From Thermoproteota archaeon (GTDB lineage Archaea > Korarchaeota > Korarchaeia > Korarchaeales > Korarchaeaceae), in contig JAOZFH010000010.1 of assembly GCA_027491415.1 (NCBI GenBank), positions 1 to 17,499 of the forward strand: a stretch of DNA of 17,499 bases, read 5' to 3'. Position numbers and translations under genes: made by a program. How positions within the stretch are numbered: the first letter of the stretch is position 1; each line of letters opens with the position of its first letter. The notes beneath the pieces are model-generated. The model was given only the letters and a program-made list of their open reading frames with translations. It was not told where the DNA came from and searched no databases. This document shows positions 827 to 17,499 of this stretch, piece by piece.

Positions 827-827
827 A

Positions 828-854: not shown

Positions 855-874
855 GTCCACCCACTCTCCTCAAC

Positions 875-885
875 TATTTATTGAA
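875..885 (+). promoter_or_regulatory. Putative TATA box for the Mo-hydroxylase operon
   Basis: TATTTATTGAA is the only AT-rich stretch in the GC-rich spacer. A GAGGAGG SD-like site lies at 951-957, before ATG 969. Confidence 0.45.
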
Positions 886-968
886 GCCGAGCCCGTTGTT
901 GCCGGATCTGGGCGCCCGAGCTCGCGAAGTCGGCCTCGGGCGTCTGACTCGAGGAGGGGCAGGTTGAC

Positions 969-2335: not shown

Positions 2336-4665
2336 GCTCGAGCTCCGTACTGGAGGAGATTCGGAGGGCAGAGGAGTTCCTGGTCGTGGGCAAGGGAGTC
2401 TGGAGGATCGACGCCCTGGACAAGGTCACCGGGAGGGCCAGGTTCACGAGCGACTTCGTCCTGAAGGACGCCCTCCACGTCAGGCTGGTGAAGAGCCCCA
2501 TACCCCACGGGAGGATCATCGAGATAGACGCCGAGAGGGCCCTTGGCCTGGGCCCCGTCCGCGTCTTCACGGCCGCGGACATCCCCGGTGAGAACCAGGT
2601 GGGCTACGCCCTGCCGGATCAGCCCCTCCTGCCCGCGGACAAGGTCAGGTACGTCGGAGAGCCGGTCGCCCTCGTGGCGGCCCCCGACGAGGACCTCGCC
2701 GAGAAGGCCGCCGAGCTCGTGGAGGTGAGGTACGAGGAGCTCCCGGCAGTGTTCGACCCGCTCGAGGCGATGGAGCGGTCCGACGTGCTGGTGCACGAGG
2801 ACAGAGGCACGAACATAGCCGAGATGACCAGGGTGAGGAAGGGGAACGTTGAGAGGGGCTTCGAGGAGTCCGACGTCGTCGTGGAGAACACCTACAGGAC
2901 CGGCCACCAAGAGCACGCCCCCCTGGAGACCGAGGGGGCCGTCGCCATACCGGACACCCAGGGGGGCGTCACCGTCATCGCCTCCATACAGTACCCGCAC
3001 CTCTGCCAGAGGATCACGGCGAGGGTCCTGGGGCTGCCCCACAGCATGGTCAGGGTCATCCAGCCCTACGTCGGCGGGGGGTTCGGCGGGAAGGACGACA
3101 TGGGTCCCGTAGTGAGCGCCATGGCCGCGCTGGTGGCCTTCAAGACCGGCAAGCCGGCCGTGCTGGTCTACAGCCGGAGGGACAGCTTCACCTCCACCTG
3201 CAAGAGGGACCCGTCGGTCGTCAGGTACAAGACGGGCGCCACGAGGGACGGGAGGCTGAAGGCCATCGAGGTCCAGATAATACTCGACTCGGGGGCGTAC
3301 GCGAACAGGGGACCGTACGTCCTCTGGAGGGCGACGATGCACGCGGGCGGGCCCTACGAGGTACCGAACGCCAAGGTCGACGGCTTCCTGGTCTACACCA
3401 ACAAGGTGTTCGAGGGGTCCTTCAGGGGGTTCGGGAACCCCCAGGTCCAGTTCGCGGCCGAGAGCCAGCTCGACGAGCTGGCCGAGAGGCTGGGCATGGA
3501 CCCGCTGGAGATAAGGCTCAAGAACCTGCTGAGGCCCGGGAGCAGGACCATAACCGATCAGCTCCTGGAGTCCTCGGTCGGGATCTACGAGGCCGTCAAG
3601 CTCCTGGGAGAGAAGACCGGGTTCAGGGCGAAGTGGCGCGAGTACAGGAGGGAGAGAGCTGGCAGGGTGAGGAGGGGGATAGGGATAGCTTGCGGCTACC
3701 ACGGGATAAGCACCAGCAGGGGGGTGCCGGACTGGTCCAACGCCACCGTCATACTCGGGAGGGACGGGAGCGTCACCGTGGAGACGGGCATATGCGAGAT
3801 AGGCCAGGGCAGCTGGACGGCCCACGCCCAGATAGCTGCGGAGGTGCTGGGCGTGCCGGTGGAGAGGGTCAAGGTGGTCGGGGGGACCAGCGACGCCCCC
3901 GACACCGGGGCGACGCATGCGTCCAGGGGGTCGAGCATAGGCGGGATAGGGGTGTACGTCGCGGCGAAGAGGCTGAGGGAGAGGCTGGCGGAGGCGGCCG
4001 CCAGGCTGCTGGAGTGCGACCCCTCTGACGTGGAGATCAGGGAGGGCAGGGCGTTCCGCAGGGACAGCCCCGACGACTACGTGGAGTGGGAGGAACTCGT
4101 CCAGGCGGCCTACAGCATGGGCTACGAGATGAGCGCCACCGGCTACTTCTTCCTCCCGAAGGGCAAGTTCGACATGGAGAGGGGTCTGGGGTACGCGTAC
4201 CCGGCGTTCAGCTACATCGCCAATGTTGCGGAGGTGGAGGTGGACCTGGAGACCGGCAAGGTCAGGGTGGTGAGGGTCTGGCCGGCCCTCGCCGCCGGGA
4301 GGATCCTCAACCCGGTGCTGGTGGAGGGGCAGATCGAGGGGGCCATCGCCCAGGGCATGGGGTACGCCCTCACGGAGGAGCTGAAGTTCGAGGACGGGCG
4401 CATGCTGAACCCGAACTTCACGGACTACCTGATCCCGACGTCGCTAGACGTGCCGGAGGTGGAGGCGCCGATATACGTGGAGGACCTCTACGAGTACGGG
4501 CCGTTCGGTGCCAAGGGGGTAGGGGAGATGGCGCTGATCCCGACGCCCGCGGCCATAATGAACGCCGTGAAGAACGCGACGGGCGTGAGGATAACTGAGA
4601 TCCCCGCCACCCCCGAGAAGGTGTACTTCCACCTGAAGGAGGCGGGGGTGGTAGCCGGGGAGTGA
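2332..4665 (+). CDS. Xanthine dehydrogenase-family molybdopterin-binding large subunit
   Basis: RIDALDKVTGRARF, QEHAPLE, GGGFGGK, SFRGFGNPQ, EIGQG, GQIEGAIAQG.G.AL.E and GAKGVGE. Start moved from 2260 to the in-frame GTG 2332, which overlaps the upstream TGA (GTGA). Confidence 0.95.
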   Translation: MSSSSVLEEIRRAEEFLVVGKGVWRIDALDKVTGRARFTSDFVLKDALHVRLVKSPIPHGRIIEIDAERALGLGPVRVFTAADIPGENQVGYALPDQPLLPADKVRYVGEPVALVAAPDEDLAEKAAELVEVRYEELPAVFDPLEAMERSDVLVHEDRGTNIAEMTRVRKGNVERGFEESDVVVENTYRTGHQEHAPLETEGAVAIPDTQGGVTVIASIQYPHLCQRITARVLGLPHSMVRVIQPYVGGGFGGKDDMGPVVSAMAALVAFKTGKPAVLVYSRRDSFTSTCKRDPSVVRYKTGATRDGRLKAIEVQIILDSGAYANRGPYVLWRATMHAGGPYEVPNAKVDGFLVYTNKVFEGSFRGFGNPQVQFAAESQLDELAERLGMDPLEIRLKNLLRPGSRTITDQLLESSVGIYEAVKLLGEKTGFRAKWREYRRERAGRVRRGIGIACGYHGISTSRGVPDWSNATVILGRDGSVTVETGICEIGQGSWTAHAQIAAEVLGVPVERVKVVGGTSDAPDTGATHASRGSSIGGIGVYVAAKRLRERLAEAAARLLECDPSDVEIREGRAFRRDSPDDYVEWEELVQAAYSMGYEMSATGYFFLPKGKFDMERGLGYAYPAFSYIANVAEVEVDLETGKVRVVRVWPALAAGRILNPVLVEGQIEGAIAQGMGYALTEELKFEDGRMLNPNFTDYLIPTSLDVPEVEAPIYVEDLYEYGPFGAKGVGEMALIPTPAAIMNAVKNATGVRITEIPATPEKVYFHLKEAGVVAGE

Positions 4666-4672
4666 TCCCCGC

Positions 4673-4936
4673 GTGATCAGGGTCAGAGTCCGCTTCTACG
4701 CCGGACTGAGGCACCGCGTAGGCGTGAGCGAGGCCACGCTCGAGCTGCCTGATGGGGCGAGGGTGGAGCACGCCGTGGATGAGCTGGCCAGGATGTTCCC
4801 GAGGGCGCTGAGGGGGATGAAGGCCCTGATGGGCTACGCCTACTGGGTCGCCAAGAACGGGCTCCAGGTCTCCCTGGAGGACGAGCTGAGGGACGGGGAC
4901 GAGCTCGTGGTGTTCCCTCCGATATCGGGGGGCTGA
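4673..4936 (+). CDS. MoaD/ThiS-family ubiquitin-like sulfur carrier (SAMP-like)
   Basis: 87 aa; VRFYAGLR...L.DGDEL..FPPISGG, with a C-terminal Gly-Gly. Confidence 0.92.
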   Translation: MIRVRVRFYAGLRHRVGVSEATLELPDGARVEHAVDELARMFPRALRGMKALMGYAYWVAKNGLQVSLEDELRDGDELVVFPPISGG

Positions 4937-4997
4937 GCACGCTCAGCGACGGGCCCCGGAAGGCGAGTCCCGGGGAAATGCGAGGCGAGTATAGCCT

Positions 4998-5611
4998 CTC
5001 ATAACGCCTAGCGTGAAGACTTAGGTCGGAAACAGGGTGAAGACCTCAGTCAGCCTCCAATCGCTCGAGGTCTCTGGACTAGGGGCGGGGCCACCCCAGG
5101 CGCCCAGAAGATCAAGAGTATCAAGAGCAAACCTGATCCGAATCTGGGGCCTCGCCGCCGGGGCACATCGTTAGGAGACGGGCAGTGAAGGGAAGGGAGG
5201 CGGCTCAGGACGCTGGAAGGTTGGAAATCTAAAGGAGAAATGCTGAAGTGGCTCCCTGACTTCTAGGGGGGTGTCCATCGCGTAGGCTAGGGTCAAGCCG
5301 AGGCTAGGCAGATCCTAAAGACCTAGGGACTCAGACGAATGGCTAAACTCGCTTAGAGTCCCGAATCAGGCTTCTAGTCGATCAGAAGGATCAGACCGTA
5401 CCACCAGGCGAGGAACAGGACCGGATAGACAGGAGAGCGCGGCCACTACGGGGGGCACCATGAGGGCCGTTAGGAGGAAGTTGAGAAGCCCCGCCAGCTC
5501 CTGGGTCGGATACCTCGGGGCGCCGCTCCTCGGGAGGATGGCGCGGGCGGCGTAGAACAGGAGAACGAGGAGCCAAAGGGTAAAGAGCGCCTGAGGGTCT
5601 CTCCAGTTCAT
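4998..5611 (-). pseudogene. Decayed paralog of the adjacent membrane protein (5659-6138)
   Basis: ATG 5611 has a GGAGG SD. MNWRDPQALFTLWLL..MVPPVVAALSCLS aligns with the neighbour. Homology resumes below ~5273 as SAFLL*ISNLPAS*AASLPFTARLLTMCPGG, GLLLILLIFWAPG and DWRLTEVFTLFPT*VFTLGVM, across several stops and frameshifts. Confidence 0.8.
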
Positions 5612-5658
5612 CGTGAAACCCTCCCGGCGACACTCAGGCGTCTCCCCTGACATGCTCC

Positions 5659-6138
5659 TCAGTCCAGCATTAGCCCTATCGGGAATATCCAGGTGACGAG
5701 CAGCAGGAGGATGCCCACGGCGGCCCTCCAGTCACCCGGATCCTCGGACCTGGCTGCTAGCGAGGAGCCGAGACCCCAGATCACCGACAAGAGCAGCAGG
5801 GCGCCGGCCCACGCCCTGGCGGCGGTGCCCCCGGGGCAGCTTGTGACGAGGCAGCCGAGCGGGGGAAAGGACGCGCCGAATGAGAGCAGGTAGGTTGACG
5901 CCCCCAGCAAGAACGCGGCCGACGGCTCTCCATTCAGTGGATGGGAGAGACAGGAGAGCGCCGCGAGGATCGGGGGGATCATCAAGATCAGGAGGAAGAA
6001 GTGGAGAAACTCTACGGGCTCCAGAGCCGGGTAGCCCAGGGAGCCCCTTCTCAGGAGGATGGCGCGCACGGAGAGAAACAGGAGGATCAGCAGCCAGAGG
6101 GCGAGGAATGCGGGGGATCTCCTCCAACTCATCACCAT
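5659..6138 (-). CDS. Hypothetical multi-pass membrane protein (~4-5 TM)
   Basis: Several long hydrophobic segments and its own AT-rich promoter region. Start is ATG 6138 or ATG 6132 (MSWR matches the paralog's MNWR). Confidence 0.75.
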   Translation of the reverse strand: MVMSWRRSPAFLALWLLILLFLSVRAILLRRGSLGYPALEPVEFLHFFLLILMIPPILAALSCLSHPLNGEPSAAFLLGASTYLLSFGASFPPLGCLVTSCPGGTAARAWAGALLLLSVIWGLGSSLAARSEDPGDWRAAVGILLLLVTWIFPIGLMLD

Positions 6139-6160
6139 CCCCTGGCATGACTTCTCATTT

Positions 6161-6180
6161 CTTAATTTATATTTATTAAG
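6161..6180 (-). promoter_or_regulatory. TATA box inside an imperfect palindrome, upstream of the membrane-protein gene
   Basis: Minus strand reads CTTAATAAATATAAATTAAG, with CTTAAT/ATTAAG arms; 16 of 20 positions are self-complementary. Confidence 0.55.
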
Positions 6181-6225
6181 TACTGCACCTATCCGTCATG
6201 GTTGCTCACCAATAGGCTCCCATCC

Positions 6226-6240
6226 AAGAAAAAGAAAAAA
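6226..6240 (-). terminator. Archaeal oligo-U terminator after the secreted-protein gene
   Basis: Minus strand TTTTTTCTTTTTCTT begins ~15 nt after the stop at 6255. Confidence 0.65.
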
Positions 6241-6254
6241 TGGTATGAAGCAGG

Positions 6255-7226
6255 TTAACCCTTGTACTTTACTCTCGTAGCCCAGCCGTCGCCTCCCTCG
6301 TCGGAGTTGTAGAGAGGAACTACCTCCCCCTCGACGTACCAGTTCCAGTAGCCGTAAGTAGGGTACCTGAAGGCCTTTGAGACCTCCGCTTCAGCCTCCT
6401 CAAATAGAACTGCCTCGTGTCCTCCCTGCCACCAAGGCGTGTCCACGTGGGCTTGCCCCACGACGTCGACCCTGCCGTAGCCCCACTTGTGGACCTTCCA
6501 GAGCCTCACATGGTACCTATCGTAGTCGCTTGTGGGGTAGTCCTTCTGCAGAGCCTTCTGATCGGGCTCCCATCCATAGGTTGGGTCGTAGACGTAGTTG
6601 GTGTTCTCTAGAACTGGGTAGGTCCAGTTGTCGTAAACGAGCTGAGTCTGGATCGGACTCAGATCCGTGAAACCGTAGCCATCCTGCCGATACCAGACCA
6701 GGTTGATGGGGTCCGCCGTGCAGTAGTAGTAATAGTCCCCCACGTAGTCCCGGAACCTCTCCCAGCTGTACTTCGGGTAGGGGTACTGGTCCCACCAGGT
6801 CGGCGGGTCGCTCTCCACTGTGCACGCGCCGGCGTACGGGACGCTCAGGACCTCGACGGTCCCTCCCGACTTGAGCCTGCTCGCCTCCCCCTCGCTCAGC
6901 CCCAGGCTGGTTACTAGGTCACTCAGCTCTTCCTCCGCGACCTCGACGGCCGCCTCATCGCCGACCAGCCTCTCCACTCCGAGCTTATCCCTCAGCTCTG
7001 GGCCCTCGAGGACCTTCCTGTAGCGGAGGAGCCTCCCGTCGTAGGCGAGGACGAGCCTCGCCTCCGCCGTCACCCTGTGCTCCCTCAGCCACTCGTCGTA
7101 GGGACCAACGCCCTGGGCCGGCTGGGCCGCGGACACGGCCGGATATGCGGCCGCGGCCAGGGTGAGGCACAGGAGCAGGACCCCCAGGGCCCTGCCCCAG
7201 CCCGCACCCAAACTTACGCCAGGCAT
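6255..7226 (-). CDS. Secreted protein with a C-terminal LssY_C-like domain
   Basis: Signal peptide (GRALGVLLLCLTLAAAAYPAVSA) and a GGAGG SD. The Tyr/Trp-rich C-terminal half has DPINLV..W..RYHVRLW..GQAHVD..H..DGWA, matching the motif order I recall for LssY C-terminal domains. CDS is confident; the family call is tentative. Confidence 0.75.
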   Translation of the reverse strand: MPGVSLGAGWGRALGVLLLCLTLAAAAYPAVSAAQPAQGVGPYDEWLREHRVTAEARLVLAYDGRLLRYRKVLEGPELRDKLGVERLVGDEAAVEVAEEELSDLVTSLGLSEGEASRLKSGGTVEVLSVPYAGACTVESDPPTWWDQYPYPKYSWERFRDYVGDYYYYCTADPINLVWYRQDGYGFTDLSPIQTQLVYDNWTYPVLENTNYVYDPTYGWEPDQKALQKDYPTSDYDRYHVRLWKVHKWGYGRVDVVGQAHVDTPWWQGGHEAVLFEEAEAEVSKAFRYPTYGYWNWYVEGEVVPLYNSDEGGDGWATRVKYKG

Positions 7227-7259
7227 ACGCTCCCTCCCGCAGGCTCCTCGCCTGCGTGA

Positions 7260-7345
7260 GTTTTGGTTAAATAATCGAATTTAAGTTCTGCGCTTTAATA
7301 CATTTCTAATACTTTTATGAAACTTTTAGGGAAGAATAATTTTCA
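7260..7345 (-). promoter_or_regulatory. Extended AT-rich promoter region of the secreted-protein gene
   Basis: Strongly AT-rich block with TTATTTAA near 7267-7274 and two TAAAAGT copies 11 nt apart on the minus strand. Confidence 0.55.
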
Positions 7346-7500
7346 TCTGCTCGCCTGACGAGAAAAGCATCGTGGAGAGAATAGCGAGAGAGCTAGGCGG
7401 AGGACGAGATTCCTAGGGGAAGGAGATTCTGGCGGAGACCAGAGACACTATCGGGGACAATCTCGGCGCTACCTGGTCTGGGCGTGGTAGGTAGAGCGAT

Positions 7501-8109
7501 CTACACGATTTTTCCCTTCACCCTCTTCAGGTCCTCGAGGCTGTCCACGTCGAACAGCACCTCCCTCTCTCCAACGGGAACCCTCAGAATCTCTCCCCTG
7601 TGCCTCCGGACGACCGCCTTCAGCCCCATCGTGGCCTCGTCGATCTGGAGGATCTCGGGGATCAGGGAGCGGTCGAACAGTATGGGGTGTCCCGACCTCC
7701 CGGCGTGTGACGCCACGGCTATCCTCGGCCTGCGGCGGGCGTAGGCCAGAATGACCTCGTCTATCGCGCGGGGAGATATGAAGGCCACATCGGCGGGGAG
7801 TACGGCCACGGCCTCTGACTCAGGGGAGGCCGAAGCCACGCCGACCCTCACCGAACTCGACATGCCCTCGCTGTATGCCGGGTTCCTGACGACCCTCAGC
7901 CTCTCGTCCCGGATGTCGGAGATCTCTACCTCCACGAGTTCCGCCTGGTGCCCCGTGACCACGACGACCTCTGATGCGAGCGACGCGAGTGCCGTCTCCA
8001 CTACCCTCCTGATGAGGGACTTACCCCCGACCCGGAAGAGCAGCTTGTTCCCGGCCTCGAACCTCTTGGACTCGCCCGCGGCGAGCACCACGAGGGAGAC
8101 CCTGGGCAC
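7501..8109 (-). CDS. mocA: Molybdenum cofactor cytidylyltransferase (MocA-like NTP transferase)
   Basis: LAAGESKRF..NKLL, NPAYSEGMSSS, PAD, GHPILF and DVDS.ED. Clustered with xdhC and an XDH-family enzyme, a family that commonly uses MCD. Confidence 0.88.
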   Translation of the reverse strand: MPRVSLVVLAAGESKRFEAGNKLLFRVGGKSLIRRVVETALASLASEVVVVTGHQAELVEVEISDIRDERLRVVRNPAYSEGMSSSVRVGVASASPESEAVAVLPADVAFISPRAIDEVILAYARRRPRIAVASHAGRSGHPILFDRSLIPEILQIDEATMGLKAVVRRHRGEILRVPVGEREVLFDVDSLEDLKRVKGKIV

Positions 8110-8119
8110 GTCGGACCCG

Positions 8120-9370
8120 TCACGCCCCTCCCCAGAGCCCCCTCCCGGCGTAGATCACCACCTCCTCGCCGGCCTCCAGCCTCAGGATCCCCTCGGGGAT
8201 CTCCACGAAGCCGTCGGACTCCACAACAGGGCGGCGGCAGAAGCTCGGCGCCTTGATGGGGACCACCTCCTCCCCCTCCAGCCTCGCGAACACGATCCTC
8301 CTGAACGGGGCGTACCTCTCGTCCCCAACCGGGGCCCTCAGCCTCCCCCGCCCGACCTCGACCCTGGCCTCCGGCGGGAGGCCGGCCATCGCCCTCACCA
8401 GGGGGAGGAGCACGTACACCAGGCCCGCGATCATGGACTGATAGTGGCCGGCGAGCAGGACCACCGGCTTCTCCCCGACGAACGCCGCGCTCGTCACCCG
8501 CCCGGGCTTGAGCCTGAGCCCCCGAAACGCGGGCTCGAATCCGTCCATCGACTTGAGGGTCGTCCACACGTAGTCCCACCGGCCGATCGACGTCCCGCCT
8601 ATCGTGACAACGACGTCGGCCGCGCTCAGGGCCTGCTGAAGCACCTCCCCTATCTTGTTCGGGTCGTCTGGGGCGATCGGCATCCTGAGGGGCTCCCCCC
8701 CGTTCCTCCTGACGGCCTCCCCCACTACGGCGTGCCTGACCTCCAGCTTAACCCCCGGGGCTCGACCTGGGTCGGGAGAGTAGCTCAGCTCACTCCCGAC
8801 GGGCACTACCGCCACCCTCGGCCTCCTGGAGACCCTGACCACTTGAAACCCCAGATCGGCCAGAAGGTCCAGGTGCCTGGGCTCCACCAGCTGGCCGGAC
8901 CTGAGCACCACCTGCCCCGCCCTCACGTCGGCCCCGGCCTGCAGCACGTTCCTTCCGGGCCGGACAGGAGATCTGACGACTATGCGATCCCCCTCCCTGG
9001 GGACCGACTCCACCGGGATGACCGAGTCGGCCCCCTCAGGCAGGTAGGCGTCCGTGGCGACGTAGAAGGCGCATCCGGGCTCCAGGAGACCGGGATCCTC
9101 CCCAATTCGAACCTCTCCGGTCACTCGGATCCTCACAGGGCTGTCCGGACCGGCGCCGGAGGTGTCCGCCGACGACACCGCGTAGCCGTCGAAGAGGGAC
9201 GTGGGCCTCCTCGGGACGTCCCAAGGGGCCCTCAGGTCCTCCGCAGAGACCCTACCGACGGCCTCTGCCAGTGGGACCTCCTCCACCTCCGTCGGCCGGG
9301 CCCCGGACAGGAGGGCGTCGAGGGCCCGGTCGAGCGGGGAGTACCTGAAGAGCTTCTCCATGAGGCTCAA
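8120..9370 (-). CDS. moeA: Molybdopterin molybdotransferase MoeA
   Basis: EAVGRV.AED, DGYAV, LPEGADSV, GSEL, PDD, GGTS.G..DY and KPG. TTG start overlaps the xdhC stop (alternative ATG 9361). Confidence 0.92.
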   Translation of the reverse strand: MSLMEKLFRYSPLDRALDALLSGARPTEVEEVPLAEAVGRVSAEDLRAPWDVPRRPTSLFDGYAVSSADTSGAGPDSPVRIRVTGEVRIGEDPGLLEPGCAFYVATDAYLPEGADSVIPVESVPREGDRIVVRSPVRPGRNVLQAGADVRAGQVVLRSGQLVEPRHLDLLADLGFQVVRVSRRPRVAVVPVGSELSYSPDPGRAPGVKLEVRHAVVGEAVRRNGGEPLRMPIAPDDPNKIGEVLQQALSAADVVVTIGGTSIGRWDYVWTTLKSMDGFEPAFRGLRLKPGRVTSAAFVGEKPVVLLAGHYQSMIAGLVYVLLPLVRAMAGLPPEARVEVGRGRLRAPVGDERYAPFRRIVFARLEGEEVVPIKAPSFCRRPVVESDGFVEIPEGILRLEAGEEVVIYAGRGLWGGA

Positions 9371-10227
9371 TCCGAACCCCTCTCCAGGGCGTCTATCATC
9401 CCGTCGGCCACCGACATAGACCCGGGGGGCCGGACCCCCTTAACCACGGCCAGCATCTCCGCGACGACGCTGACGGCCACCTCCCCGGGCGTGTCCGAGC
9501 CGAGGTCGAGCCCGGACGGCACCCTCAGGACCCCCTTGAGCCTGGAGAAGTCGAGCCCCTCGTCCCTGAGCCTGGCCAGAAGCTTCCCACCCTTGGTCCT
9601 GCTTCCCAGCAGGCCGACGTACCTCGGGAGCCTATCGAGGCCGCACAGGAACCGAAGCACCCTGTACTCCACGTCCGGCTCCCCGTGGGCTATGAAGAGG
9701 AGGTCCTCCGGGCCCGGCGGATCCCTCGCGAGGCCGTCGACGGGATCGCCGACCCTCAGCTCGGCCCCCGGGAACCTCTCCGAAGTGGCGGTCTCCGGGT
9801 TGTCGTCCACCACCACGGACCTCCACCCCAGGACCCGGGCCACCCTGTGGACCTGGAGGGCCACGTGCCCGGACCCCACGAGGAAGAGCCTCGGGTCCGG
9901 CACCAGCACGTCGATGAACACCGCCGACTCACCCCCGCACAGGTGGCCGGTGCCTATGGACCCGGGGGAGCCGGACTCCGCGAAGCTGAACCTGAGGAGC
10001 CTGGGCCTGCCGTCCTGGAGCGCCTCCCTCGCCGCCTCGACGACCAGCCTCTCGAACTCCCCTCCCCCGAGGGTCCCGAAGACGCCGCCCTCGAGCACGG
10101 CCAGCTTGGCACCCGGATCCCTAGGGCCGGAGCCCACCTTCTCCACGACCGTGCAGAGCGCCACCCGCCTGCCCCTGCTCAGCTCTCGGGCCGCCGCCGC
10201 GAGGACGGCTGGATCTCCGGCCGGCAT
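9367..10227 (-). CDS. xdhC: XdhC/CoxI-family Moco chaperone
   Basis: GSGPRDPGAK, GTLGGG.FE, LCGG, GSGHVA, YVGLLGS and GLDLGSDTPGEVAVSVVAE. True start is ATG 10227; the track's extension to 10677 overlaps the upstream gene. Confidence 0.93.
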   Translation of the reverse strand: MPAGDPAVLAAAARELSRGRRVALCTVVEKVGSGPRDPGAKLAVLEGGVFGTLGGGEFERLVVEAAREALQDGRPRLLRFSFAESGSPGSIGTGHLCGGESAVFIDVLVPDPRLFLVGSGHVALQVHRVARVLGWRSVVVDDNPETATSERFPGAELRVGDPVDGLARDPPGPEDLLFIAHGEPDVEYRVLRFLCGLDRLPRYVGLLGSRTKGGKLLARLRDEGLDFSRLKGVLRVPSGLDLGSDTPGEVAVSVVAEMLAVVKGVRPPGSMSVADGMIDALERGSD

Positions 10228-10248
10228 ATACCGGGGGAAGGGGCGGTC

Positions 10249-10257
10249 AAATATTAT
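10249..10257 (-). promoter_or_regulatory. TATA-like box for a leaderless xdhC-moeA-mocA transcript
   Basis: Minus strand ATAATATTT lies 22-30 nt upstream of ATG 10227. No SD is visible. Confidence 0.5.
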
Positions 10258-10304
10258 CCTGAGAGGGGGCCCACGCAGGCCGGGAGGGCGGGTTCGCTCG
10301 GGGG

Positions 10305-11042
10305 TCACCTCCCGAGGGGGCACCACCTCCTGAACCCGAGGAGCGCCTCGGCTGAGGCGCCGGTGACGCCGTAGAGCACTATCTTCTCTGAGGGGGCGGA
10401 GATCAGGTCGTCGAGAGTGCCGTTGGCCACCACGCTGCTGGTCACGAGGGCGAGGTCGGCCCACTGGACGGCCTCCCCGTCCGAAGAGTGGGGCTCCACC
10501 TCGACGCCCTCGACCATCTTCCCGACATTCCTGGGGTTCGCGTCGGTTATCCTCAGGCGGGTCCCGCCGAGCGTCCGAGCCAGAGAGCGGGCCATGGCCG
10601 GCTGGTACCCCACCAGGGCCACCCTCTCGACGCCGAGGCCAGATACCCACTCGGCCAGCCTCTCGGCGCACCTCCACGGATCCTCGTCCCTGCAGTGGAC
10701 GGTCCTGTCCGCGAGGCCCAGCGCCCGGACCAGTGCGTTGGACGTCGCCACCAAGATAGCCCTCAGCCTGGGGTCTGAGGCGTCGAGCTCAAGGACCTCG
10801 CCCAGGGTACCGGAGAACTCCCACGGGCGTCCGGTGAAGGCCTGTCCCCTGGCACCGAGGACCGTCGCCTCGACCAGCCTCTCCTCACCCCTGGCCAGGG
10901 GGAACTCCGGGCTCCCGGGGTCGCCGATGGCCTCCTTCGGAGAGAGGGGGTGGGCTCTCACCTCGACCCTCTCGCCCCCAAGGCCCCTCGAGGCGATCAG
11001 ATCTCTGAGCCTCCCCCTCAGGAGATCGACGAGGCGCCCCAT
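10305..11042 (-). CDS. DUF364/Rossmann-like domain protein
   Basis: EAIGDP..FPL.RGEE.L.EA, GQAFT, HCRDEDPWRCA, VGYQPAM, D.NP.N.G, ANGT and YGVTGA. TATA-like ATTTAT at 11070-11075, ~28 nt upstream. Confidence 0.8.
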   Translation of the reverse strand: MGRLVDLLRGRLRDLIASRGLGGERVEVRAHPLSPKEAIGDPGSPEFPLARGEERLVEATVLGARGQAFTGRPWEFSGTLGEVLELDASDPRLRAILVATSNALVRALGLADRTVHCRDEDPWRCAERLAEWVSGLGVERVALVGYQPAMARSLARTLGGTRLRITDANPRNVGKMVEGVEVEPHSSDGEAVQWADLALVTSSVVANGTLDDLISAPSEKIVLYGVTGASAEALLGFRRWCPLGR

Positions 11043-11091
11043 CCAAGGGCCGAGTGGTCCAGACCCCGGATAAATGTAGGCTGCCAGAAGC

Positions 11092-11542
11092 TCACGACCG
11101 TCGAGGGGTTCCCCGGGGAGAGGGCTCGACGAACACCACCTCTATCCCCTCGCTCGCCAGGAGATCTGCGATACTCTTGTGGTCGGAGTCGCAGGTGAGG
11201 AGCCTGGCCGGGGGGATGGGGGAGCACGCTATCAGCAGGTCCAGGTCGGGGACCTCGATCCCCTCTCCTCGGCCCTGGCCCTGACTCTAGCCGCCAGGTC
11301 GACCGCCCTCCTGGTCAGCGGGGCGACGGAGATCCACCTCAGCGTCCTCTGGATCCACAGGAGTTCGCTCGAGCCCCCCTCGCTCGAAGCGCGTGGTAAG
11401 CCCCCGCGAGCAGCTCGTACTCCGTCAAAACTGAGATTAGGAGACCTCCCGCCCCCTCTGCGGCCCTCCTGAGGGACTCGGCAGCCTTGGAGCTTCCCCT
11501 CCTCAGCTCTAACAGGAAGGACGTGTCTAGGAGGAGGTTCAA
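11092..11542 (-). pseudogene. vapC: VapC PIN-domain toxin interrupted by two frameshifts (or homopolymer errors)
   Basis: LLDTSFL..ISVLTEYEL in frame 1, SELLWIQRTLRWISVAPLT..AARVRA in frame 2, and IEVPDLDLLIACS..LLTCDSDH in frame 3, ending at TGA 11092-11094. Adding one G to each of the runs at 11374-11379 and 11260-11263 restores a 150-aa ORF. Confidence 0.85.
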
Positions 11543-11763
11543 GCTTCCACCCTGGGGCCGAAGCCCTCCCTCAGCTCCCTGACTATCCTCACGATCTCCT
11601 CGACTCCCTCCAACCTCCTGGACTCCTCTATGATGCGCTCGACCCTGAGATCCACCCTCGATCGGATGAGCTCGTCTATGACCTGGGAGAAGCTCCTGCC
11701 TCCGGCTCCCTTGAGGGCCACGAGCTTCCTGTAGACCTCATCGCTCACGGTTATGGTTTTCAT
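11539..11763 (-). CDS. vapB: VapB-family antitoxin
   Basis: MKTITVSDEVYRKLVALK...SFSQVIDELI (archaeal RHH-type antitoxin), with a 4-nt overlap with the PIN gene. Confidence 0.88.
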   Translation of the reverse strand: MKTITVSDEVYRKLVALKGAGGRSFSQVIDELIRSRVDLRVERIIEESRRLEGVEEIVRIVRELREGFGPRVEA

Positions 11764-11862
11764 CTCTTCGTGTGTCGTATATTATGGAACATAAGCCTCG
11801 TGCAAAGGGTGGACGCCCTGCCACGCGAATTATATCTCGCGGGGGGAGACGGGACTCTAGCA

Positions 11863-12468
11863 GTGCGCGGCAGAAGGTTGCCGAGAGATTTCTTCTGCAG
11901 GGACCCGGTGGCGCTGGCGATCGACCTGCTGGGCAAGCTGCTCGTCCACGAGTCTCCGGAGGGCAGGACCTCCGGCGTGGTGGTGGAGACGGAGGCCTAC
12001 CTCGGGAGGGGGGACAGGGCGTCGCACGGCTACGGCGGCAGGAGGACCCCGAGAATGGAGCCCCTCTACGGGCCGTGCGGGCGCGCCTACGTCTACGTGG
12101 TCCACGGGAGGCCCCTGCTGAACGTGGTGGCGGGGCCGCCCGGGGAGCCTACGGCCGTCCTAATCAGGGCGCTGGAGCCCAGGGAGGGAATCGAGCTCAT
12201 GGCCGAGAGGCGTGGAATAAGGATAGAGAAGGAGTCAGACCTGAGGAAACTCTGTTCCGGGCCGGGGAGGCTCACCCAGGCCATGGGAATAACGAGGGAG
12301 CACAACGGCGCGGACCTAGTGGAGGGGCCAATACACTTCGAGGATGTGGGGTACGAGGTCCGCGAGGTCGTGAGGAGGCCCAGGGTCGGCGTGGACTACG
12401 CGGGCGAGGACGCGCTAAGGCCCCTCAGGTTCTACGTGGCGGGGAACAGGTTCGTGTCGAGGAGGTGA
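11863..12468 (+). CDS. mpg: DNA-3-methyladenine glycosylase (MPG/AAG family)
   Basis: LLGKLL, VETEAYLG..D.ASH, YVY.VHG, AVLIRALEP, SGPGRL.QA.GI, PRVG and LRFY..GN.FVS. Likely start is GTG 11863, with TATA-like AATTATAT ~28-34 nt upstream. Confidence 0.95.
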   Translation: MRGRRLPRDFFCRDPVALAIDLLGKLLVHESPEGRTSGVVVETEAYLGRGDRASHGYGGRRTPRMEPLYGPCGRAYVYVVHGRPLLNVVAGPPGEPTAVLIRALEPREGIELMAERRGIRIEKESDLRKLCSGPGRLTQAMGITREHNGADLVEGPIHFEDVGYEVREVVRRPRVGVDYAGEDALRPLRFYVAGNRFVSRR

Positions 12469-12607
12469 GCGAGCCACCGGCGGACCGTGTGGGACGTCGG
12501 GGGAACGGCCGGGCGGAGTGTGGGTGAGGGGAGGGTCGGCTGCTGCACTCCCCGGATTGCGGGGGGTTGGGGGCTTCTTAGAGCCGGCGGTACGCAGGAA
12601 TTGGTTG

Positions 12608-14533
12608 TCAGCTCTGCCGACCCCCGCTAGGGATTGAGATCGGAGGTATCTTACATTTCAGGATTCCGAGGGCGAAGCGCCTGGCCTCCCCCTCCAGACC
12701 CAGGGCCCTGAGCCGAGAGATCAGTCGGGCTGCGCCGTAGGCGTCGGCCTCCCTGGAGAGCCTGTCCAGGAACTCCAGGGCGAAGCGCCTGGCCTCCCCC
12801 TCCAGACCCAGGGCCCTGAGCCAGGAGATCAGTCGGGCTGCGCCGGGGGCCGAGACTCGAAATTCATTCTCCCCCTCCGAGCCTGGAGCTGGAGTTCGAT
12901 CTCTCTGCTTCAAGACATCCGTCAAGACGCACGTCAGCACCCTTAGCGCCAGTGGGCTGTCCGAAGATTCTTCAACTAGGTAGTCTGCGGGGGGCTTAGC
13001 CCCTCCGACCCGTGCGGCGCTCCTCCAGACCTCCAAGAGGAAGCTCTCCTCTCCCCAGTCTCCAGGAGGGAGGTGAGGCCTGAGCTCCCCATGCCGCACA
13101 CCCCTCAGGAGGAGCCTGGCGTACTCCTTGTGGTAGAGGACGTGCTCGAACCTGCCTCCGGGTCCGTGTGTCCTCTGCAGATACCCCCTCTCCGCGAGCC
13201 AGTCCAGCCCTGACTCAACGCGGCCGAGCGCAATCTCCTTATCCTCACCACGCAGGAGGGGTCTCAGGGCCTCCCTCACCACGCGAGCGTCGAAGGGGGC
13301 CTGAAACGTGTACAGCGCGGCGGCCACCAGCAGGACGAGCGCCCTGGGCCAGTTCTCTAGCCTACCCTCCATGACCCCGGAAATCTCTTCCAGAACGCGC
13401 CTCTCCAGGGCCCCCCTCACGTCCTCCGGAGACCTCAGAACGGGTCTCTCCCCGCTCCTAACGAGTTCGGCCATGAAGAGAGGGTTGAAGCCGGCCCCCT
13501 CTACTAGGTTGGCGACCTCCCGGTCGCTCAGCTTCCACCCCCGCCGCCGGGTCAGCCACCTGGCGAATCTCTCGAGTTCCCATCTCTCGATCCTCAGACT
13601 TAACTCGTCCACCGCCCCGAGGGGATTCTCCCTCTCCCAGGGACCCACCAAGCTCCTCCTGGTCCCGGCGACGGCGACCGCCCCGGCCCTCCTGATCCTG
13701 TCGAAGGCGGCCGCCACGTCCCTCGGGGCGGCCTCGGCCCTGTCCAAGATGAAGACCATCCTCCTCACCAGGCTCCTGCCCACCCTACCATCAAGCGCTT
13801 CCTCGAGTCTCCTCCTCACCTCCCCGACGTCGACGCTGGCCAGTTCCGCTCGGCCCACCTGGGCGTTCACGTAGAACACCAGCCTTCCCTTGATAGTCAG
13901 CTCCCAGCCGGCCGTCGCGAGTGAGTAGGTCTTGCCCGAGGCCGCGGGCCCTATCAGGATGAGGCTCTCCCCCCTCTCAGCCCTCCTCAGCACCTCGTCC
14001 ACGGCGGGCCACCTGTAGACCCTCCCCGACGCCAGGTCGGCCAGGGATGGGAGACCCCTCCCCCCCTCGGCGAGCACGGTGACGAGAGGCGCGAAGGGGA
14101 CCTCAAGCAGCTCGTGGACCGCCCTCACGACGCCCTCCCCGGAGACCCGCGTCCCGGCCTCCTCACAGGCCGCCAAGACCGCGGAGGCCAGGGCCAGCTT
14201 CCCCAGGGCCTTGGCCGCGTCTTCCCTCTCCTCAAGCTCCTCGGCACCCTCCAAGATCGAGAGGAACCTCTCCCAGAGCCTGCCTAGGCTCTCCCCGTCC
14301 GCCGCCCCCTCTCGGACGGTTGCAAGTATGGAGCGAGCCTCCTCCAGCTCCCGCCCGCGGAGCGAGGACAGCTCCCTTAGTACCTCGATCTCCCTGTCCT
14401 CGAACATCCCGCGGAGCGAATCTATTAGGCTGGACAGCCTCCCGTGAAACTCCGCCAGGTCGTTTACCGAGCCCATAAGCTCGGTCGCCCTAAGGAATCC
14501 GATCAGGGCCAGGGAGAGCAGACCCTCCAGCAA
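12608..14533 (-). CDS. STAND-class (NLR-like) P-loop ATPase with helical N-terminus, winged-helix region and C-terminal repeat
   Basis: Walker A GPAASGKT (13928-13951), Walker B VFILDRAE, sensor-like VAGTR, GFNPL (GxP-like), and LDWLAERGYL..LYHKEYA. TTATA lies ~27 nt before TTG 14533 (alternative ATG 14476). Confidence 0.75.
   Translation of the reverse strand: MLEGLLSLALIGFLRATELMGSVNDLAEFHGRLSSLIDSLRGMFEDREIEVLRELSSLRGRELEEARSILATVREGAADGESLGRLWERFLSILEGAEELEEREDAAKALGKLALASAVLAACEEAGTRVSGEGVVRAVHELLEVPFAPLVTVLAEGGRGLPSLADLASGRVYRWPAVDEVLRRAERGESLILIGPAASGKTYSLATAGWELTIKGRLVFYVNAQVGRAELASVDVGEVRRRLEEALDGRVGRSLVRRMVFILDRAEAAPRDVAAAFDRIRRAGAVAVAGTRRSLVGPWERENPLGAVDELSLRIERWELERFARWLTRRRGWKLSDREVANLVEGAGFNPLFMAELVRSGERPVLRSPEDVRGALERRVLEEISGVMEGRLENWPRALVLLVAAALYTFQAPFDARVVREALRPLLRGEDKEIALGRVESGLDWLAERGYLQRTHGPGGRFEHVLYHKEYARLLLRGVRHGELRPHLPPGDWGEESFLLEVWRSAARVGGAKPPADYLVEESSDSPLALRVLTCVLTDVLKQRDRTPAPGSEGENEFRVSAPGAARLISWLRALGLEGEARRFALEFLDRLSREADAYGAARLISRLRALGLEGEARRFALGILKCKIPPISIPSGGRQS
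12669..12845. repeat. 69-bp direct repeat, two copies (12669-12737 and 12777-12845), period 108 bp
   Basis: 67 of 69 nt identical. Encodes GAARLIS[W/R]LRALGLEGEARRFAL twice, with a 36-aa period. Confidence 0.95.
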
Positions 14534-14875
14534 CCCAGCCCTGGGTCCGCCGAGAAAGGTATAAGGTTGTGGCCGCCCCCGCAGGCGGCGGCCGCGGGGT
14601 CCAGGTGGTGTTGGGGGAGAGTCGCCCGCCTCGCGCGTACGGAGTCTCCCGACGGCGATCCGGGCGCCTTCCCGCCTGGCGTCCGGGTCGGGGCGCTCGT
14701 CGATTGCGCCCGTCGATCAGCCGCCACAGGGGTCACGAGGATTCCCTAGGCCGACCGGGCTTCACGACCGTGAGAGGAGCACTCCCTGCCCCAGACTCCA
14801 AGGGAGGCCTGCGTCGATCCGATTCCAGGGGGCCGCGCGCAATCTTTATCTTCACAGGATGCACATAACTCACCG

Positions 14876-15163
14876 ATGGCGAATATCACGCTGAGCATTC
14901 CGGAGGACCTCTACCGGCTGATGAAGAGGTACAAGAGCATCAACTGGTCCGAGATCGCCAGGAGGGCGATAGTCAGGGAGATCCTCTACAGGAAGGCGCG
15001 AGACGAGGGACTCACCCTGAGGGAGCTCGGCATGCTCTTGGACGTCAGCGGGATACCCTTGACCGGCGAGAGGCCTACGCTTGACGAGGGGGAACTCCAG
15101 GATAGGCTGAGGAGGAGGGAGCGGAGGAGGATGGAGGGGCTGAGGGAGGGGGTTTCATCGTGA
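14876..15163 (+). CDS. RHH-type antitoxin (VapB-like)
   Basis: MANITLSIPEDLYRLMKRY..INWSEIARRAI. TTTAT box at ~14845, and a GTGA overlap with the PIN gene. Confidence 0.85.
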   Translation: MANITLSIPEDLYRLMKRYKSINWSEIARRAIVREILYRKARDEGLTLRELGMLLDVSGIPLTGERPTLDEGELQDRLRRRERRRMEGLREGVSS

Positions 15164-15498
15164 CCGTCCTCGACACCTCGTCCGTCATATCGCGGGTCAG
15201 GAGGGGGGTCGAGGTCTGGGAGAACGTCACCACGATCGCCCTGATCGAGTACCCGCCGCTCAGGGGATACGAGAAGTTTCAAGGAACGATCTACTTCGCC
15301 TCTGAGGATGACCAGCTGCTCGCCGCGACCCTTCAGGAGAGGCTCAGGAGGGTGGGCAGGCCCATGAGCGCGGCAGACCTGCTGGTGGCGGCCATCTGCA
15401 TCAACAGGGGTGAGGAGCTCGTGACGAGGGACGAGGACTTCCTCGCGCTGGCTGAGGCTGAACCCTCCCTCAGGGTGAGGGTGGAGCACGAGCGTTAG
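15160..15498 (+). CDS. vapC: VapC PIN-domain toxin
   Basis: VLDTS, IEYP, ADLLVAA and LVTRDEDF; the acidic PIN residues are intact. Confidence 0.9.
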   Translation: MTVLDTSSVISRVRRGVEVWENVTTIALIEYPPLRGYEKFQGTIYFASEDDQLLAATLQERLRRVGRPMSAADLLVAAICINRGEELVTRDEDFLALAEAEPSLRVRVEHER

Positions 15499-15846
15499 AG
15501 ATGCGCAGCGCCAGAGGCCCCGCAGAGCCGGGCATAAGCCTCTGAGGCGGGGCGGATCTCCAACCGGCTCTGGCGGACTCGTCACCGTGTCGGGATGCCG
15601 ACGGTGGATACTGAGTGGGAATGAGAAAAGAAAAGTAAAACTCATCTAGCTAGGGCCTGCCCACGGGCGGCGTGGGAGGGTGCGTCGAGGAGGGGGATCT
15701 CGGTTCGCGTGGCGCTCGCTGAATCGCAAGTCGACAGGCGCCCAGCCAGCGCCACGCAGACCCGGGAGGGGCGATCTCCCGCTCCGGCAGGCCCTCTCTT
15801 CTCGGCCGGGGACTGGGTTCCGGGTAGACCTGCGGGAGGGCGACGA

Positions 15847-16731
15847 TTGCGCGAGGGGGGCGTCGCCGGGGTCAGGGTGAGGTCTGTCCTGAACAGGCAC
15901 AGGAGGAGGGACGACTGGTTCCTCGACGAGTACTCCGTGAACCCCTACTACGGGTGCCCCCTCTCCTGCGTGTACTGCTACGCCAGGGGGACGAAGTACG
16001 GCTCCTCGCCACCAGGTGAGGTCAGGGCCAAGGTGAACGCCCACGAGGTTCTGGCCAGGCAGCTCAGGGCGGAGGCCAGGGCTGGGAGGAGGGGCTTCAT
16101 AGCGCTGGGGACGGCGACGGAGCCCTACATGCCCGCCGAGGCCGACCTCAACCTGACCAGGCGGTGCCTGGAGGTGATCTCCTCCCTGAGGTTCCCGGTG
16201 CACGTGCTGACCAAGTCCGACCTCGTGCTGAGGGACGCCGACCTGCTGCGGGAGGCGGCCGAGAGGGCGATCCTCCCGCCGGACCTGAGGGGGAAGGTCG
16301 AGGGGGCCGTCGTGACCGTCTCTATCTCGACCCTCGACCCGGAGGCCGCGGGGGCGTTCGAGCCGGGCGCCCCTCCCCCGGATCGCAGGCTGGACGTGGT
16401 CAGGAGGCTCTCCGAGGCGGGGCTGGCCGCAGGGGTGGCCTTCATCCCGGTCCTCCCCGGCATCTCGGACGGCGAGGGGGAGATCGACCGCATGGTGGAG
16501 GCGGCGGCGGAGGTCAGGGTGAGCCACGTCTTCGTCGGCGCCCTGACCGTCCCAGGGGCCGTCAGGAGGGCGGTCGAGGGCCTGATCTCCCGGAGGTTCC
16601 CGGAACTCCTGCCAACCTACAGGGGGCTCTTCTCCTCCGGCCCATATCCACCAGGCGGCTACCAGGCGAGGCTCGACAGGATGGCAAGGGAGGCCTGCGG
16701 GAGGCACGGCGTCCGATACATGCTCCTCTGA
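15847..16731 (+). CDS. Radical SAM protein, spore photoproduct lyase-like (SplB/Rv2578c-like)
   Basis: NPYYGCPLSCVYCYA (CxxxCxxC), GTATEPY.P.E, LTKSDLVLRD, FEPGAP.P..R and PVLPGISD. Likely start is TTG 15847 after GGAGG, rather than 15709. Confidence 0.9.
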   Translation: MREGGVAGVRVRSVLNRHRRRDDWFLDEYSVNPYYGCPLSCVYCYARGTKYGSSPPGEVRAKVNAHEVLARQLRAEARAGRRGFIALGTATEPYMPAEADLNLTRRCLEVISSLRFPVHVLTKSDLVLRDADLLREAAERAILPPDLRGKVEGAVVTVSISTLDPEAAGAFEPGAPPPDRRLDVVRRLSEAGLAAGVAFIPVLPGISDGEGEIDRMVEAAAEVRVSHVFVGALTVPGAVRRAVEGLISRRFPELLPTYRGLFSSGPYPPGGYQARLDRMAREACGRHGVRYMLL

Positions 16732-16989
16732 CCATCTGCCCCACGACGCAGGGACAACCGAGAGGGCCGCCTAGGGATCCCTGAGGCGAGGCGCCTCAAT
16801 TGGCCCCTCCTCGCGCTCGCCTACGAGTTCCGTTGGGGATGTCGCCTCAATCATACGATACGACACGCGATCACGGACCGATAATTCGGTCAGCGGGGGC
16901 CGACCCCTCGAGAACATGCCTCAGCGCCCGGCAGAGCCCACAGCACGGTAGGAGCGTCCCGCTCCTCTCCTTTGATCTCGTCGAACCCG

Positions 16990-17349
16990 CTAGTCGGGCA
17001 AGCTCTCCTCTACGAGTCTGATGAGCCTACTGGCCTTCTCCAAGGCGTCCTCCGCCTCCTCCCTCGAGAAGCTGTAGGGCCTGTGGTCGGCGGTCTTCCT
17101 CCTGACGAACAGGTCCAGGTAGTCTCGCCTGGCCCCCTCGGCCCTCTCCCTCCCAACCCTCACCTCCAAGATCCTCCTGAGGGCGTTGGCAATCTTGTCG
17201 TCCTTCGTGGTCCTCAGGCCCCTCACCCGGTGCTCGACCGTGAGCCTCACCGCGAAGTAGGCGGCCGAGACCGCCTTGTTGTAGTTCCCGTGGAGCAGGT
17301 CGTCCTCGGCCTCCTTCAGAAGGATCCTAGCCTTCTCAGCCTTGTCCAA
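16990..17349 (-). CDS. HEPN domain protein (putative RNase toxin)
   Basis: A...L.EAE..L..G.Y..AVS.AYFA N-terminus and C-terminal RKTADH (Rx4H). Confidence 0.88.
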   Translation of the reverse strand: MDKAEKARILLKEAEDDLLHGNYNKAVSAAYFAVRLTVEHRVRGLRTTKDDKIANALRRILEVRVGRERAEGARRDYLDLFVRRKTADHRPYSFSREEAEDALEKASRLIRLVEESLPD

Positions 17350-17499
17350 TCAGAACTCTCCCCCCGGCCGCCATGAACAGCTCCAGGACGTCCTCCTCCC
17401 CCTCGGAGGCCAGGAGCGGGTTGACCCTCTCCCCGACCTCCGAGGCCAGCCTGGCCACGAGCTCAAAGTCCCCGGGCCTGACCTCCCTGAGCACCACCA
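17336..17499 (-). CDS. C-terminal part of a probable MNT nucleotidyltransferase antitoxin (not in ORF track)
   Basis: Open frame ..VVLREVRPGDFELVARLASEVGERVNPLLASEGEEDVLELFMAAGGRVLIGQG*, overlapping the HEPN start by 14 nt. The catalytic motif lies outside the window, so the product is inferred from context. Confidence 0.6.
   Translation of the reverse strand, partial: VVLREVRPGDFELVARLASEVGERVNPLLASEGEEDVLELFMAAGGRVLIGQG

Follow-up and report, generated by a model that had tools for sequence, protein, structure and literature searches.

The window analysed here, a 17,499-nucleotide contig from a Thermoproteota archaeon (JAOZFH010000010.1, positions 1 to 17,499), encodes on its minus strand at 12608..14533 a 641-amino-acid (aa) protein, P0001, that probably belongs to the STAND class of NTPases. 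This assignment is based on the sequence motifs of P0001 and on its neighbours in language-model searches. The fuller reading of P0001, as an orphan, lineage-restricted STAND-class (NLR-like) signalling NTPase with a possible role in defence, is one that we regard as evenly poised. The P0001 family is tiny, nearly orphan and lineage-restricted. The nearest genomes to the window are metagenome-assembled genomes labelled 'Thermoproteota archaeon' and 'uncultured Nitrososphaerota archaeon', in agreement with the archaeal source proposed in a sequence-only reading of this DNA, and the phylum as defined in GTDB contains only 43 genomes.

The motifs were examined in an alignment of four rows (A1), one of which is P0004, a homologue 41% identical to P0001 from another genus (genome G005). 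Invariant in A1 are the N-terminus (M)LEGLLSLALIGFLRA, Walker A, Walker B, GTRR, a lid motif and a His motif; all motifs quoted in the sequence-only reading, which had named no strand, were found in P0001 as written. Walker A (G195-PAASGK201-T) and Walker B (MVFILD264) fit the patterns GxxxxGK[ST] and hhhhD, and strands are placed accordingly in the predicted models. STAND motifs are described as a sensor-1 Arg after strand 4 that follows Ser or Thr and hydrophobic residues, a second acidic residue in Walker B or one at +3 of it, a lid Pro, a winged-helix His, and no sensor-2 Arg (Proell et al. 2008, PMC2323615). Sensor 1 of P0001 reads V-A-V-A-G-T291-R292-R293, with R292 right after strand 4 (the model strand ends at 291) and invariant in A1. 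D264 is followed by R265, i.e. there is no DD or DE pair, and E267 at +3 is invariant; this resembles the extended box of NLRs, a single Glu being a weak likeness. The lid Pro lies in G348-F-N-P351-L-F at the start of lid helix 3 and is invariant in A1, as are H464 and H468 at the junction of the wing and the next helix. When the family was aligned with 28 archaeal Orc1/Cdc6 proteins using hhalign, R292 fell opposite the Cdc6 sensor-1 Asn, and the query had no counterpart of the Cdc6 'LDEvD' (DE Walker B) or 'GDaR' (sensor 2); the lid segment aligns with Cdc6 GDaR/AI..L and has no Arg there. The position of the Cdc6 Arg finger is a Gly in P0001, and no Arg is conserved. P0001 carries the STAND-type motif set and lacks the DE Walker B, the conserved Arg finger and the sensor-2 Arg that mark AAA+ proteins.

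AlphaFold2 models built on shallow alignments were of low confidence, with a predicted local distance difference test score (pLDDT) of 48 for the full-length protein, and a pLDDT of 53 and a predicted template modelling score (pTM) of 0.48 for residues 130-545, but they are clear as to secondary structure. P0001 is predicted from these to be a P-loop ASCE ATPase with a helical lid and a winged helix, followed by helices and repeats. Residues 1-129 (14147..14533; all coordinates in this paragraph are on the minus strand) form an all-helical N-terminal domain, a candidate effector or adaptor with a hydrophobic first helix, E3, a net charge of -11, and six helices predicted in residues 1-126. The nucleotide-binding domain with its leading helices (residues 130-316; 13586..14146) contains Walker A (G195..K201-T202), D264, E267 and G-T291-R292-R293, and has a predicted five-strand beta-alpha-beta core with strands at 191-194, 218-223, 259-264, 286-291 and 309-312. 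A helical lid similar to helical domain 1 (HD1) of STAND proteins (residues 317-390; 13364..13585), with four helices predicted over 317-388, has the invariant G346-A-G348-F-N350-P351-L-F where its third helix begins. The winged-helix domain (residues 391-478; 13100..13363) is predicted as helices over 395-448 and a hairpin at about 453-456 / 462-465, then the invariant E-H464-V-L-Y-H468-K-E-Y-A, with further helices after it. A post-winged-helix helical region, an HD2-like linker of low-confidence helices (residues 479-561; 12851..13099; 35% identity to P0004), leads to two tandem 36-aa helical repeat units (GAARLISxLRALGLEGEARRFAL...) and a conserved C-x-I-P-P tail (12635..12850), which are candidate sensor repeats. 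Identity to P0004 is 32–35% at the termini, 44% in the NTPase domain and 52% in the winged helix. The order of N-terminal helical domain, P-loop NTPase, helical lid, winged helix, helices and repeats that had been read from the sequence holds in these low-confidence models and in fold searches.

Both language-model searches placed P0001 beside STAND families. The named clusters nearest to full-length P0001 in the ESM Atlas are all STAND (nSTAND3, NB-ARC, nSTAND5, NACHT and NPHP3_N, at 0.92–0.94 with 166–180 shared features), and a search with residues 300-545, a part without the P-loop, gave nSTAND3 (carried by 19% of cluster members) and WHD_NWD1 (0.90) as named neighbours. Foldseek returned NLRP7, Apaf-1 and CED-4 within its top six; the matches of the full-length AlphaFold2 model (pLDDT 48) are meaningless. 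Sequence searches of the PDB with P0001, with A1 and with a profile of the lid and winged helix (A4) gave chance P-loop or ABC matches only, apart from a weak similarity of residues 540-621 to RecX (E 0.028), which we take as 'helical repeat-like' only.

P0001 is not an orthologue of Orc1/Cdc6; this identity was rejected because Cdc6_C (PF09079) has no match to P0001 at E<=1 and two genuine Orc1/Cdc6 genes are present elsewhere in the genome. Cdc6_C is found in 17/17 relatives, including the two copies in the window's own genome, and the P0001 gene in 3/41. True Orc1/Cdc6 paralogues of the phylum align with the Orc1/Cdc6 alignment at an hhalign probability of 100%, compared with 57–59% for the P0001 family. 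In both groups the ATPase is followed by a lid and then a winged helix, colinear in hhalign across 300–349 columns, but P0001 differs in having no DE Walker B, no Asn at sensor 1 and no GDaR at sensor 2, and in having additional N- and C-terminal domains. The match to Cdc6/Orc1, which the sequence-only reading had named among the best structural matches that would refute it, is weak.

The Pfam NACHT model (PF05729) matches five small proteins of the window's phylum at 28–31 bits (cut-off 26.7). L096, L097, L099 and L100 (from G044, G042, G047 and G043 respectively) are Orc1/Cdc6 paralogues, with hhalign probabilities of 100% and a 'GNAR' or 'GDAR' sensor 2; the fifth, L098 (G000:C60:51565-52071, in the window's own genome), was left out of the Cdc6 hhalign alignment. 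Above-threshold matches to the Pfam NACHT model and sub-threshold ones to nSTAND5 can therefore be Orc1/Cdc6 or RFC proteins, and automatic counts of archaeal NLRs need caution.

The open reading frame (ORF) at 12608-14533 is a real gene; its reading frame is kept across genera at 41% identity, which takes it beyond chance, and it has homologues at 93%, 64% and 41% identity. The frame is open for 702 codons in all, and the 641-codon gene starts with a TTG, upstream of which ATG, GTG and TTG are all absent from the open frame. The G005 homologue has an ATG start a few residues earlier and a hydrophobic N-terminus like that of P0001, also supporting the TTG start. A TATA-like hexamer, TTATAC (14559..14564, minus strand), is located at positions -31..-26, 25 nucleotides (nt) before the TTG, and AT-rich hexamers are similarly placed at other first genes of the window, at -31 for VapB2 and VapB1 and at -32 for DUF364, with a background frequency of 280/17494 positions (1.6%). 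This common geometry adds support to the TTG start. Leaderless archaeal transcripts have a promoter element at about such a distance from the start codon, and TTATAC is the probable promoter of a leaderless P0001 mRNA, consistent with the earlier suggestion that the gene has its own promoter. Antisense ORFs inside the gene (e.g. 13308-13874, plus strand) were not accepted as genes, since they lack homologues and are of the spurious kind that high-GC DNA typically yields.

The N-terminal domain is acidic, about 125 aa long and predicted to be all helices (pLDDT ~30), with 32% identity to P0004. Its hydrophobic first helix, (M)LEGLLSLALIGFLRA, pointed out in the sequence-only reading, is present, and a hydrophobic N-terminus is conserved in P0004 (41%) and in the fragment P0007. 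The helix is not transmembrane-grade, with a 19-residue Kyte-Doolittle mean of 1.45–1.51. The usual transmembrane threshold on this scale is about 1.6, and a buried helix of the winged-helix domain scores higher than the first helix. A transmembrane anchor at the N-terminus was rejected because the hydropathy is under this threshold. An acidic residue is near the start in P0001 (E3) and in P0004 (D4), and there is none at positions 2-4 of P0007. HeLo, Helo_like_N, SesA, Rx_N and MLKL gave no Pfam match at E<=1 for P0001 or the other members of A1, and a complex prediction with four copies of residues 1-129 scored 0.01, which counts neither way.

Bell domains are described as helical bundles of 120–140 aa whose N-terminal helix is hydrophobic and in which residue 2 or 3 is often acidic; these features are common to HeLo, MLKL, RPW8 and Rx_N, and the domains are sometimes N-terminal on NLR-type proteins (Dyrka et al., bioRxiv 10.1101/2020.01.06.895854). 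That preprint reports archaeal ones from Methanosarcinales only. Set against that description and against the HeLo, MLKL and coiled-coil (CC; Rx_N) domains, the P0001 domain is alike in its length of about 125 aa, predicted helices, conserved hydrophobic first helix and E3/D4, but differs in matching no HeLo or Rx_N profile, in the low pLDDT of its fold (~30) and in its sub-threshold hydropathy; the likeness to Bell is by description only. The length, helicity, hydrophobic helix and E3/D4 nonetheless make the HeLo/CC analogy of the sequence-only reading a reasonable one. That the domain is a membrane-disrupting effector, as the analogy would suggest, is speculative, and we consider it unlikely.

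The 'helical repeats' of the sequence-only reading proved to be tandem 36-aa units that vary in copy number between relatives, with two in the window, one in the metagenomic homologue P0003 and at least three nearly identical units in G005. In the window they form an 84-nt direct repeat at 12659-12742 and 12767-12850, with a spacing of 108 nt and 90% identity, and a copy in a second genome of the genus, G004, has a 12-nt deletion within the array. In G005 the homologue is divided between the ends of two contigs (the L003 end, G005:C1 start; and L005:2-268, G005:C10 start), and the division lies exactly within the near-identical units, indicating that the repeat array breaks the assembly.

Homologues of P0001 are very few. 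Word-indexed protein searches found a single non-self match, P0003 (476 aa, 64% identical, beginning at residue 130), and when 1.84 billion representatives were searched exhaustively with phmmer, four proteins scored E<=0.001: P0001 itself, P0003, P0006 (a C-terminal fragment of 55 aa) and P0007 (an N-terminal fragment of 86 aa). Among 41 relatives the gene is present in three, i.e. its own genome, G004 (same genus, 93%) and G005 (41%), and the search did not find it in any of the genus's three remaining genomes, of which two are at least 95% complete. Profile searches of the class (40 genomes) and of the phylum (43 genomes) recovered the same three full-length copies; other matches are to the P-loop only, at 11–18 bits, with the exception of one fragment in the congener G002. 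Relatives were likewise lacking in pattern scans of metagenomes (0/95 and 0/54 matches) and of viral contigs (0/37). Using tblastn we found no match to P0001 in phages, and 16 plasmid records each matching just 50 residues around Walker A, at E 0.5.

The gene and its upstream spacer alone make up a segment of about 2.4 kb (12469..14875) that the window shares with G004. In its place G002 has about 75 bp, between a glycosylase gene and a VapBC pair that are colinear with the flanking genes of the window at 75–88% nucleotide identity. We found no flanking direct repeats around the segment, and no transposase, integrase or replication gene within it. The G004 locus is colinear with the window but contains a 1-bp deletion that causes a frameshift at about codon 489. 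P0003 and P0007 are encoded on one metagenome contig of 51505 bases, and the gene there has thus probably been split into two calls. In G005 the upstream neighbours are unlike those of the window, comprising genes for a C39-like peptidase, a methyltransferase, an ACT protein, an F420H2-dependent reductase and a glycosyl hydrolase. From the G002, G004 and G005 comparisons it follows that synteny is not kept among carriers and that the gene has been gained, lost and broken; the universal conserved synteny against which the sequence-only reading had cautioned is not seen, as carriers differ in context and most relatives are without the gene. The P0001 gene is an accessory and frequently decaying one.

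At a different locus of G002 (L016:1468-2052, corresponding to about 114905-115489 of G002:C3) there is a 195-aa open frame, 'SLHHREYARLLL', with E values of 2e-4 to 3e-4. It is homologous to the winged-helix tail and the repeat-bearing C-terminal region of P0001 and has no NTPase part upstream; judged by its sequence, it is the remnant of a diverged P0001 paralogue. The remnant adjoins an HhH-GPD glycosylase-like gene, and the window copy adjoins a glycosylase of another family, which may be coincidence. In G005, the homologue is preceded on its own strand, at a distance of 559 bp, by a gene for a 174-aa Peptidase_C39-like cysteine protease (L020:4903-5427; Pfam 1.1e-13, with a weak PHROG endolysin match) that has no counterpart in the window.

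In the window the P0001 gene is monocistronic, with VapBC-type modules to either side, in line with the earlier description of a standalone gene among toxin-antitoxin modules. It is convergent with a downstream gene for an MPG-type 3-methyladenine DNA glycosylase (11770-12468; PF02245, 1.9e-58), beyond which are VapB (11539-11763) and, next to it, a truncated PIN protein of 67 aa (11339-11542) that spans only profile positions 2-47 of 120. Upstream and divergent is a VapBC-type module on the plus strand (14876..15498), with a ribbon-helix-helix antitoxin (14876-15163) and a PIN toxin (15160-15498); this module is taken as context of the P0001 gene only, and is also present in G002, which lacks that gene. 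The remaining window genes encode a carbamoyltransferase, a molybdo-flavoenzyme (FAD, 2Fe-2S and molybdenum cofactor subunits), ThiS, MoeA, XdhC, DUF364 and a radical SAM protein.

Two other segments of the window vary between congeners. Positions 4932-7520 are replaced by about 47 bp in G002 and by a different sequence of about 1.5 kb in G004; the minus-strand ORFs of this segment (5366-5653, 5659-6138 and 6255-7226) have no Pfam, NCBIfam, PADLOC or PHROG match, the GC content is 0.58–0.62 as against 0.65–0.70, and the upstream regions are very AT-rich. The segment has the appearance of a variable hotspot or foreign islet. Positions 11009-11882, which hold VapB and the truncated PIN gene, have about 148 bp in their place in G002, and look like a decaying VapBC module. 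An 860-aa ORF at 7751-10333 (plus strand) has no family match, lies antisense to MoeA (8120-9370) and XdhC (9367-10677), and is almost certainly a spurious high-GC frame.

Not all of our results favour the description of P0001 as an NLR-like STAND protein and candidate immune receptor, as the sequence-only reading had it. The motifs, domain order and language-model neighbours bear it out, but no curated STAND or Avs model of Pfam, NCBIfam or PADLOC reaches threshold for P0001, and structure searches overall leave STAND and AAA+ tied. The best Pfam match is nSTAND_NTPase5 at 23 bits (cut-off 34), and ATPase_2 scores 18.2 (cut-off 33.2); NCBIfam gives nothing, and PADLOC v2 gives only GajB (E 0.036, across 32 P-loop residues) and no Avs or other defence STAND model. 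The nSTAND5 model has sub-threshold matches in 14/14 control genomes, its matches in a Thermococci-like phylum are RFC, KaiC-like and AAA_14-like proteins, and RFC large subunits and KaiC-like proteins reach 26–30 bits; since RFC large subunits outscore P0001, this signal is useless as a discriminator. The hhalign probabilities for P0001 are 66% to RFC and 57–59% to Orc1/Cdc6, where the reference alignments were those two families with no bona fide STAND alignment among them; the phylum of G038, tried as a source of a STAND reference, has two genomes only. The lid spacing is G-x-x-P rather than G-x-P, the His patch EHVLYHKEYA is an inexact fit to FxHxxQEhxA, and motif invariance is known from only three to four sequences. 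Residues 1-129 match no Pfam, PADLOC or PHROG family, P0001 has no known effector domain, and the C-terminal region of about 160 aa is far shorter than typical Avs or NLR sensors. PADLOC matched no model among the window neighbours and recognised no defence gene in the window, the GC content of the gene is unremarkable, equalling that of its surroundings, and the breaks in other copies may be metagenome assembly errors.

These points bear differently on the alternatives. P0001 could be a very divergent AAA+ protein, similar to Orc1/Cdc6, RFC or MuB/TnsC/IstB, with a C-terminal winged helix, in which case it would be a DNA-associated protein left over from a mobile element. The RFC and Orc1/Cdc6 alignments fit this, the latter being colinear through the ATPase, lid and winged helix, as do the weak Pfam matches to AAA_22, AAA_25 and IstB and the insertion or deletion of the P0001 segment between congeners. 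It fits less well with the missing DE Walker B, conserved Arg finger and sensor-2 Arg, with the lack of Cdc6_C and the gap between 57–59% and the 100% of true paralogues, with a 2.4-kb segment containing no transposase, integrase or replication gene and showing no flanking repeats, and with named language-model neighbours that are all STAND families. To our knowledge, an N-terminal helical domain and C-terminal repeats are not among the features of initiator, clamp-loader or transposition-helper AAA+ families, and their presence in P0001 also argues against this alternative, which we regard as fairly unlikely. If it were correct and the STAND assignment failed, the P0001 gene would be an orphan AAA+-like accessory gene.

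P0001 could also be a STAND NTPase with a non-immune role, a regulator like the bacterial MalT and AfsR whose winged helix or N-terminal domain would couple a signal, from a small molecule or a protein, to transcription or to the adjoining VapBC module or DNA-repair gene. Architecture and motifs support such a regulator and an immune receptor equally; no defence genes were detected nearby, the short C-terminal region seems better suited to a small ligand than to a whole viral protein fold, and both the window copy and the G002 remnant adjoin glycosylase genes, albeit of different families. However, Pfam detects no dedicated DNA-binding output domain beyond the winged helix of the nucleotide-binding oligomerisation domain (NOD) module, absence from most close relatives and repeated breakage better fit a dispensable, costly gene, the flanking genes persist unchanged in G002 without the P0001 gene, and the context differs in G005; we consider a regulator improbable. 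The gene might instead have no function left in this genome, as an orphan in decay from a family close to extinction, as could be argued from the four related proteins (self included) among 1.84 billion representatives, the apparent disruption of two other loci and the 195-aa remnant at one more. Yet the window copy is intact over 641 codons, with a promoter-like element at the canonical distance, and its catalytic motifs are invariant across genera at 41% overall identity, which indicates purifying selection; independent recent duplications of the repeat in two lineages further suggest ongoing evolution of a domain in use. A functionless leftover is very improbable.

Compared with established STAND NTPases (the Apaf-1/CED-4 AP-ATPases, NACHT NLRs and nSTAND clades), P0001 is alike in the order of its parts, its motif set, its ESM Atlas neighbours and its Foldseek ranks. 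It differs in reaching no Pfam STAND threshold, in the GxxP lid, the EHVLYHKEYA patch and an N-terminal domain of no known family, and in a sensor of about 160 aa with one to at least three 36-aa repeats in place of long LRR, WD40 or TPR arrays. With the Avs proteins it shares a patchy, island-like distribution, but it has no PADLOC Avs match, no nuclease, SIR2, TIR or protease effector and no defence genes in the window. Its sensor is also much smaller than those of the Avs proteins described in a survey by Gao and colleagues (PMC13581612), which envelop their targets. That survey sorts STANDs into 589 clades and reports at least 90 structurally distinct defence-associated families in prokaryotes, with varied N-terminal effectors including transmembrane forms; on these figures P0001 would be one more of a well-populated kind.

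Under the STAND reading, a role for P0001 in defence or conflict is plausible given the patchy distribution, presence and absence between relatives, decay, variable termini and repeat number, and the nearby VapBC. Its mechanism would likely follow that of Apaf-1, NLR and Avs proteins, by analogy with which we can outline it. At rest, P0001 would be an ADP-bound monomer whose closed state is maintained by winged-helix contacts to the nucleotide, in which one of the two invariant His residues, the lid Pro and the sensor-1 Arg take part; His mutants of STAND proteins are often autoactive. The variable C-terminal repeats would bind a ligand, probably a protein of viral or other foreign origin, with ADP/ATP exchange and oligomerisation of the NOD following. 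The N-terminal helical domains clustered in this way may then damage the membrane or recruit a partner, in a response of the abortive-infection type. It is unlikely that P0001 is an archaeal NLR in the full sense, in which the NOD would be joined to a Bell/HeLo/CC-like bundle that inserts its hydrophobic first helix into the membrane on oligomerisation while a small, fast-evolving array of 36-aa repeats senses a virus protein; if it were, the plan known from plant resistosomes and fungal HeLo-NLRs, a 'NOD plus membrane-targeting death domain', would be present in a unicellular archaeon of a small Thermoproteota-related phylum. If the STAND reading is correct, P0001 would be a compact, single-gene NLR-like system of 641 aa from a little-studied archaeal lineage, with an effector of no known family and a minimal repeat sensor, and an archaeal addition to the catalogue of prokaryotic STAND immunity. 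It would provide a small test case for the way in which a NOD links a very short sensor to an N-terminal output made of helices, and for whether the helical, membrane-targeting death domains known from plants, fungi and animals have counterparts in archaea.

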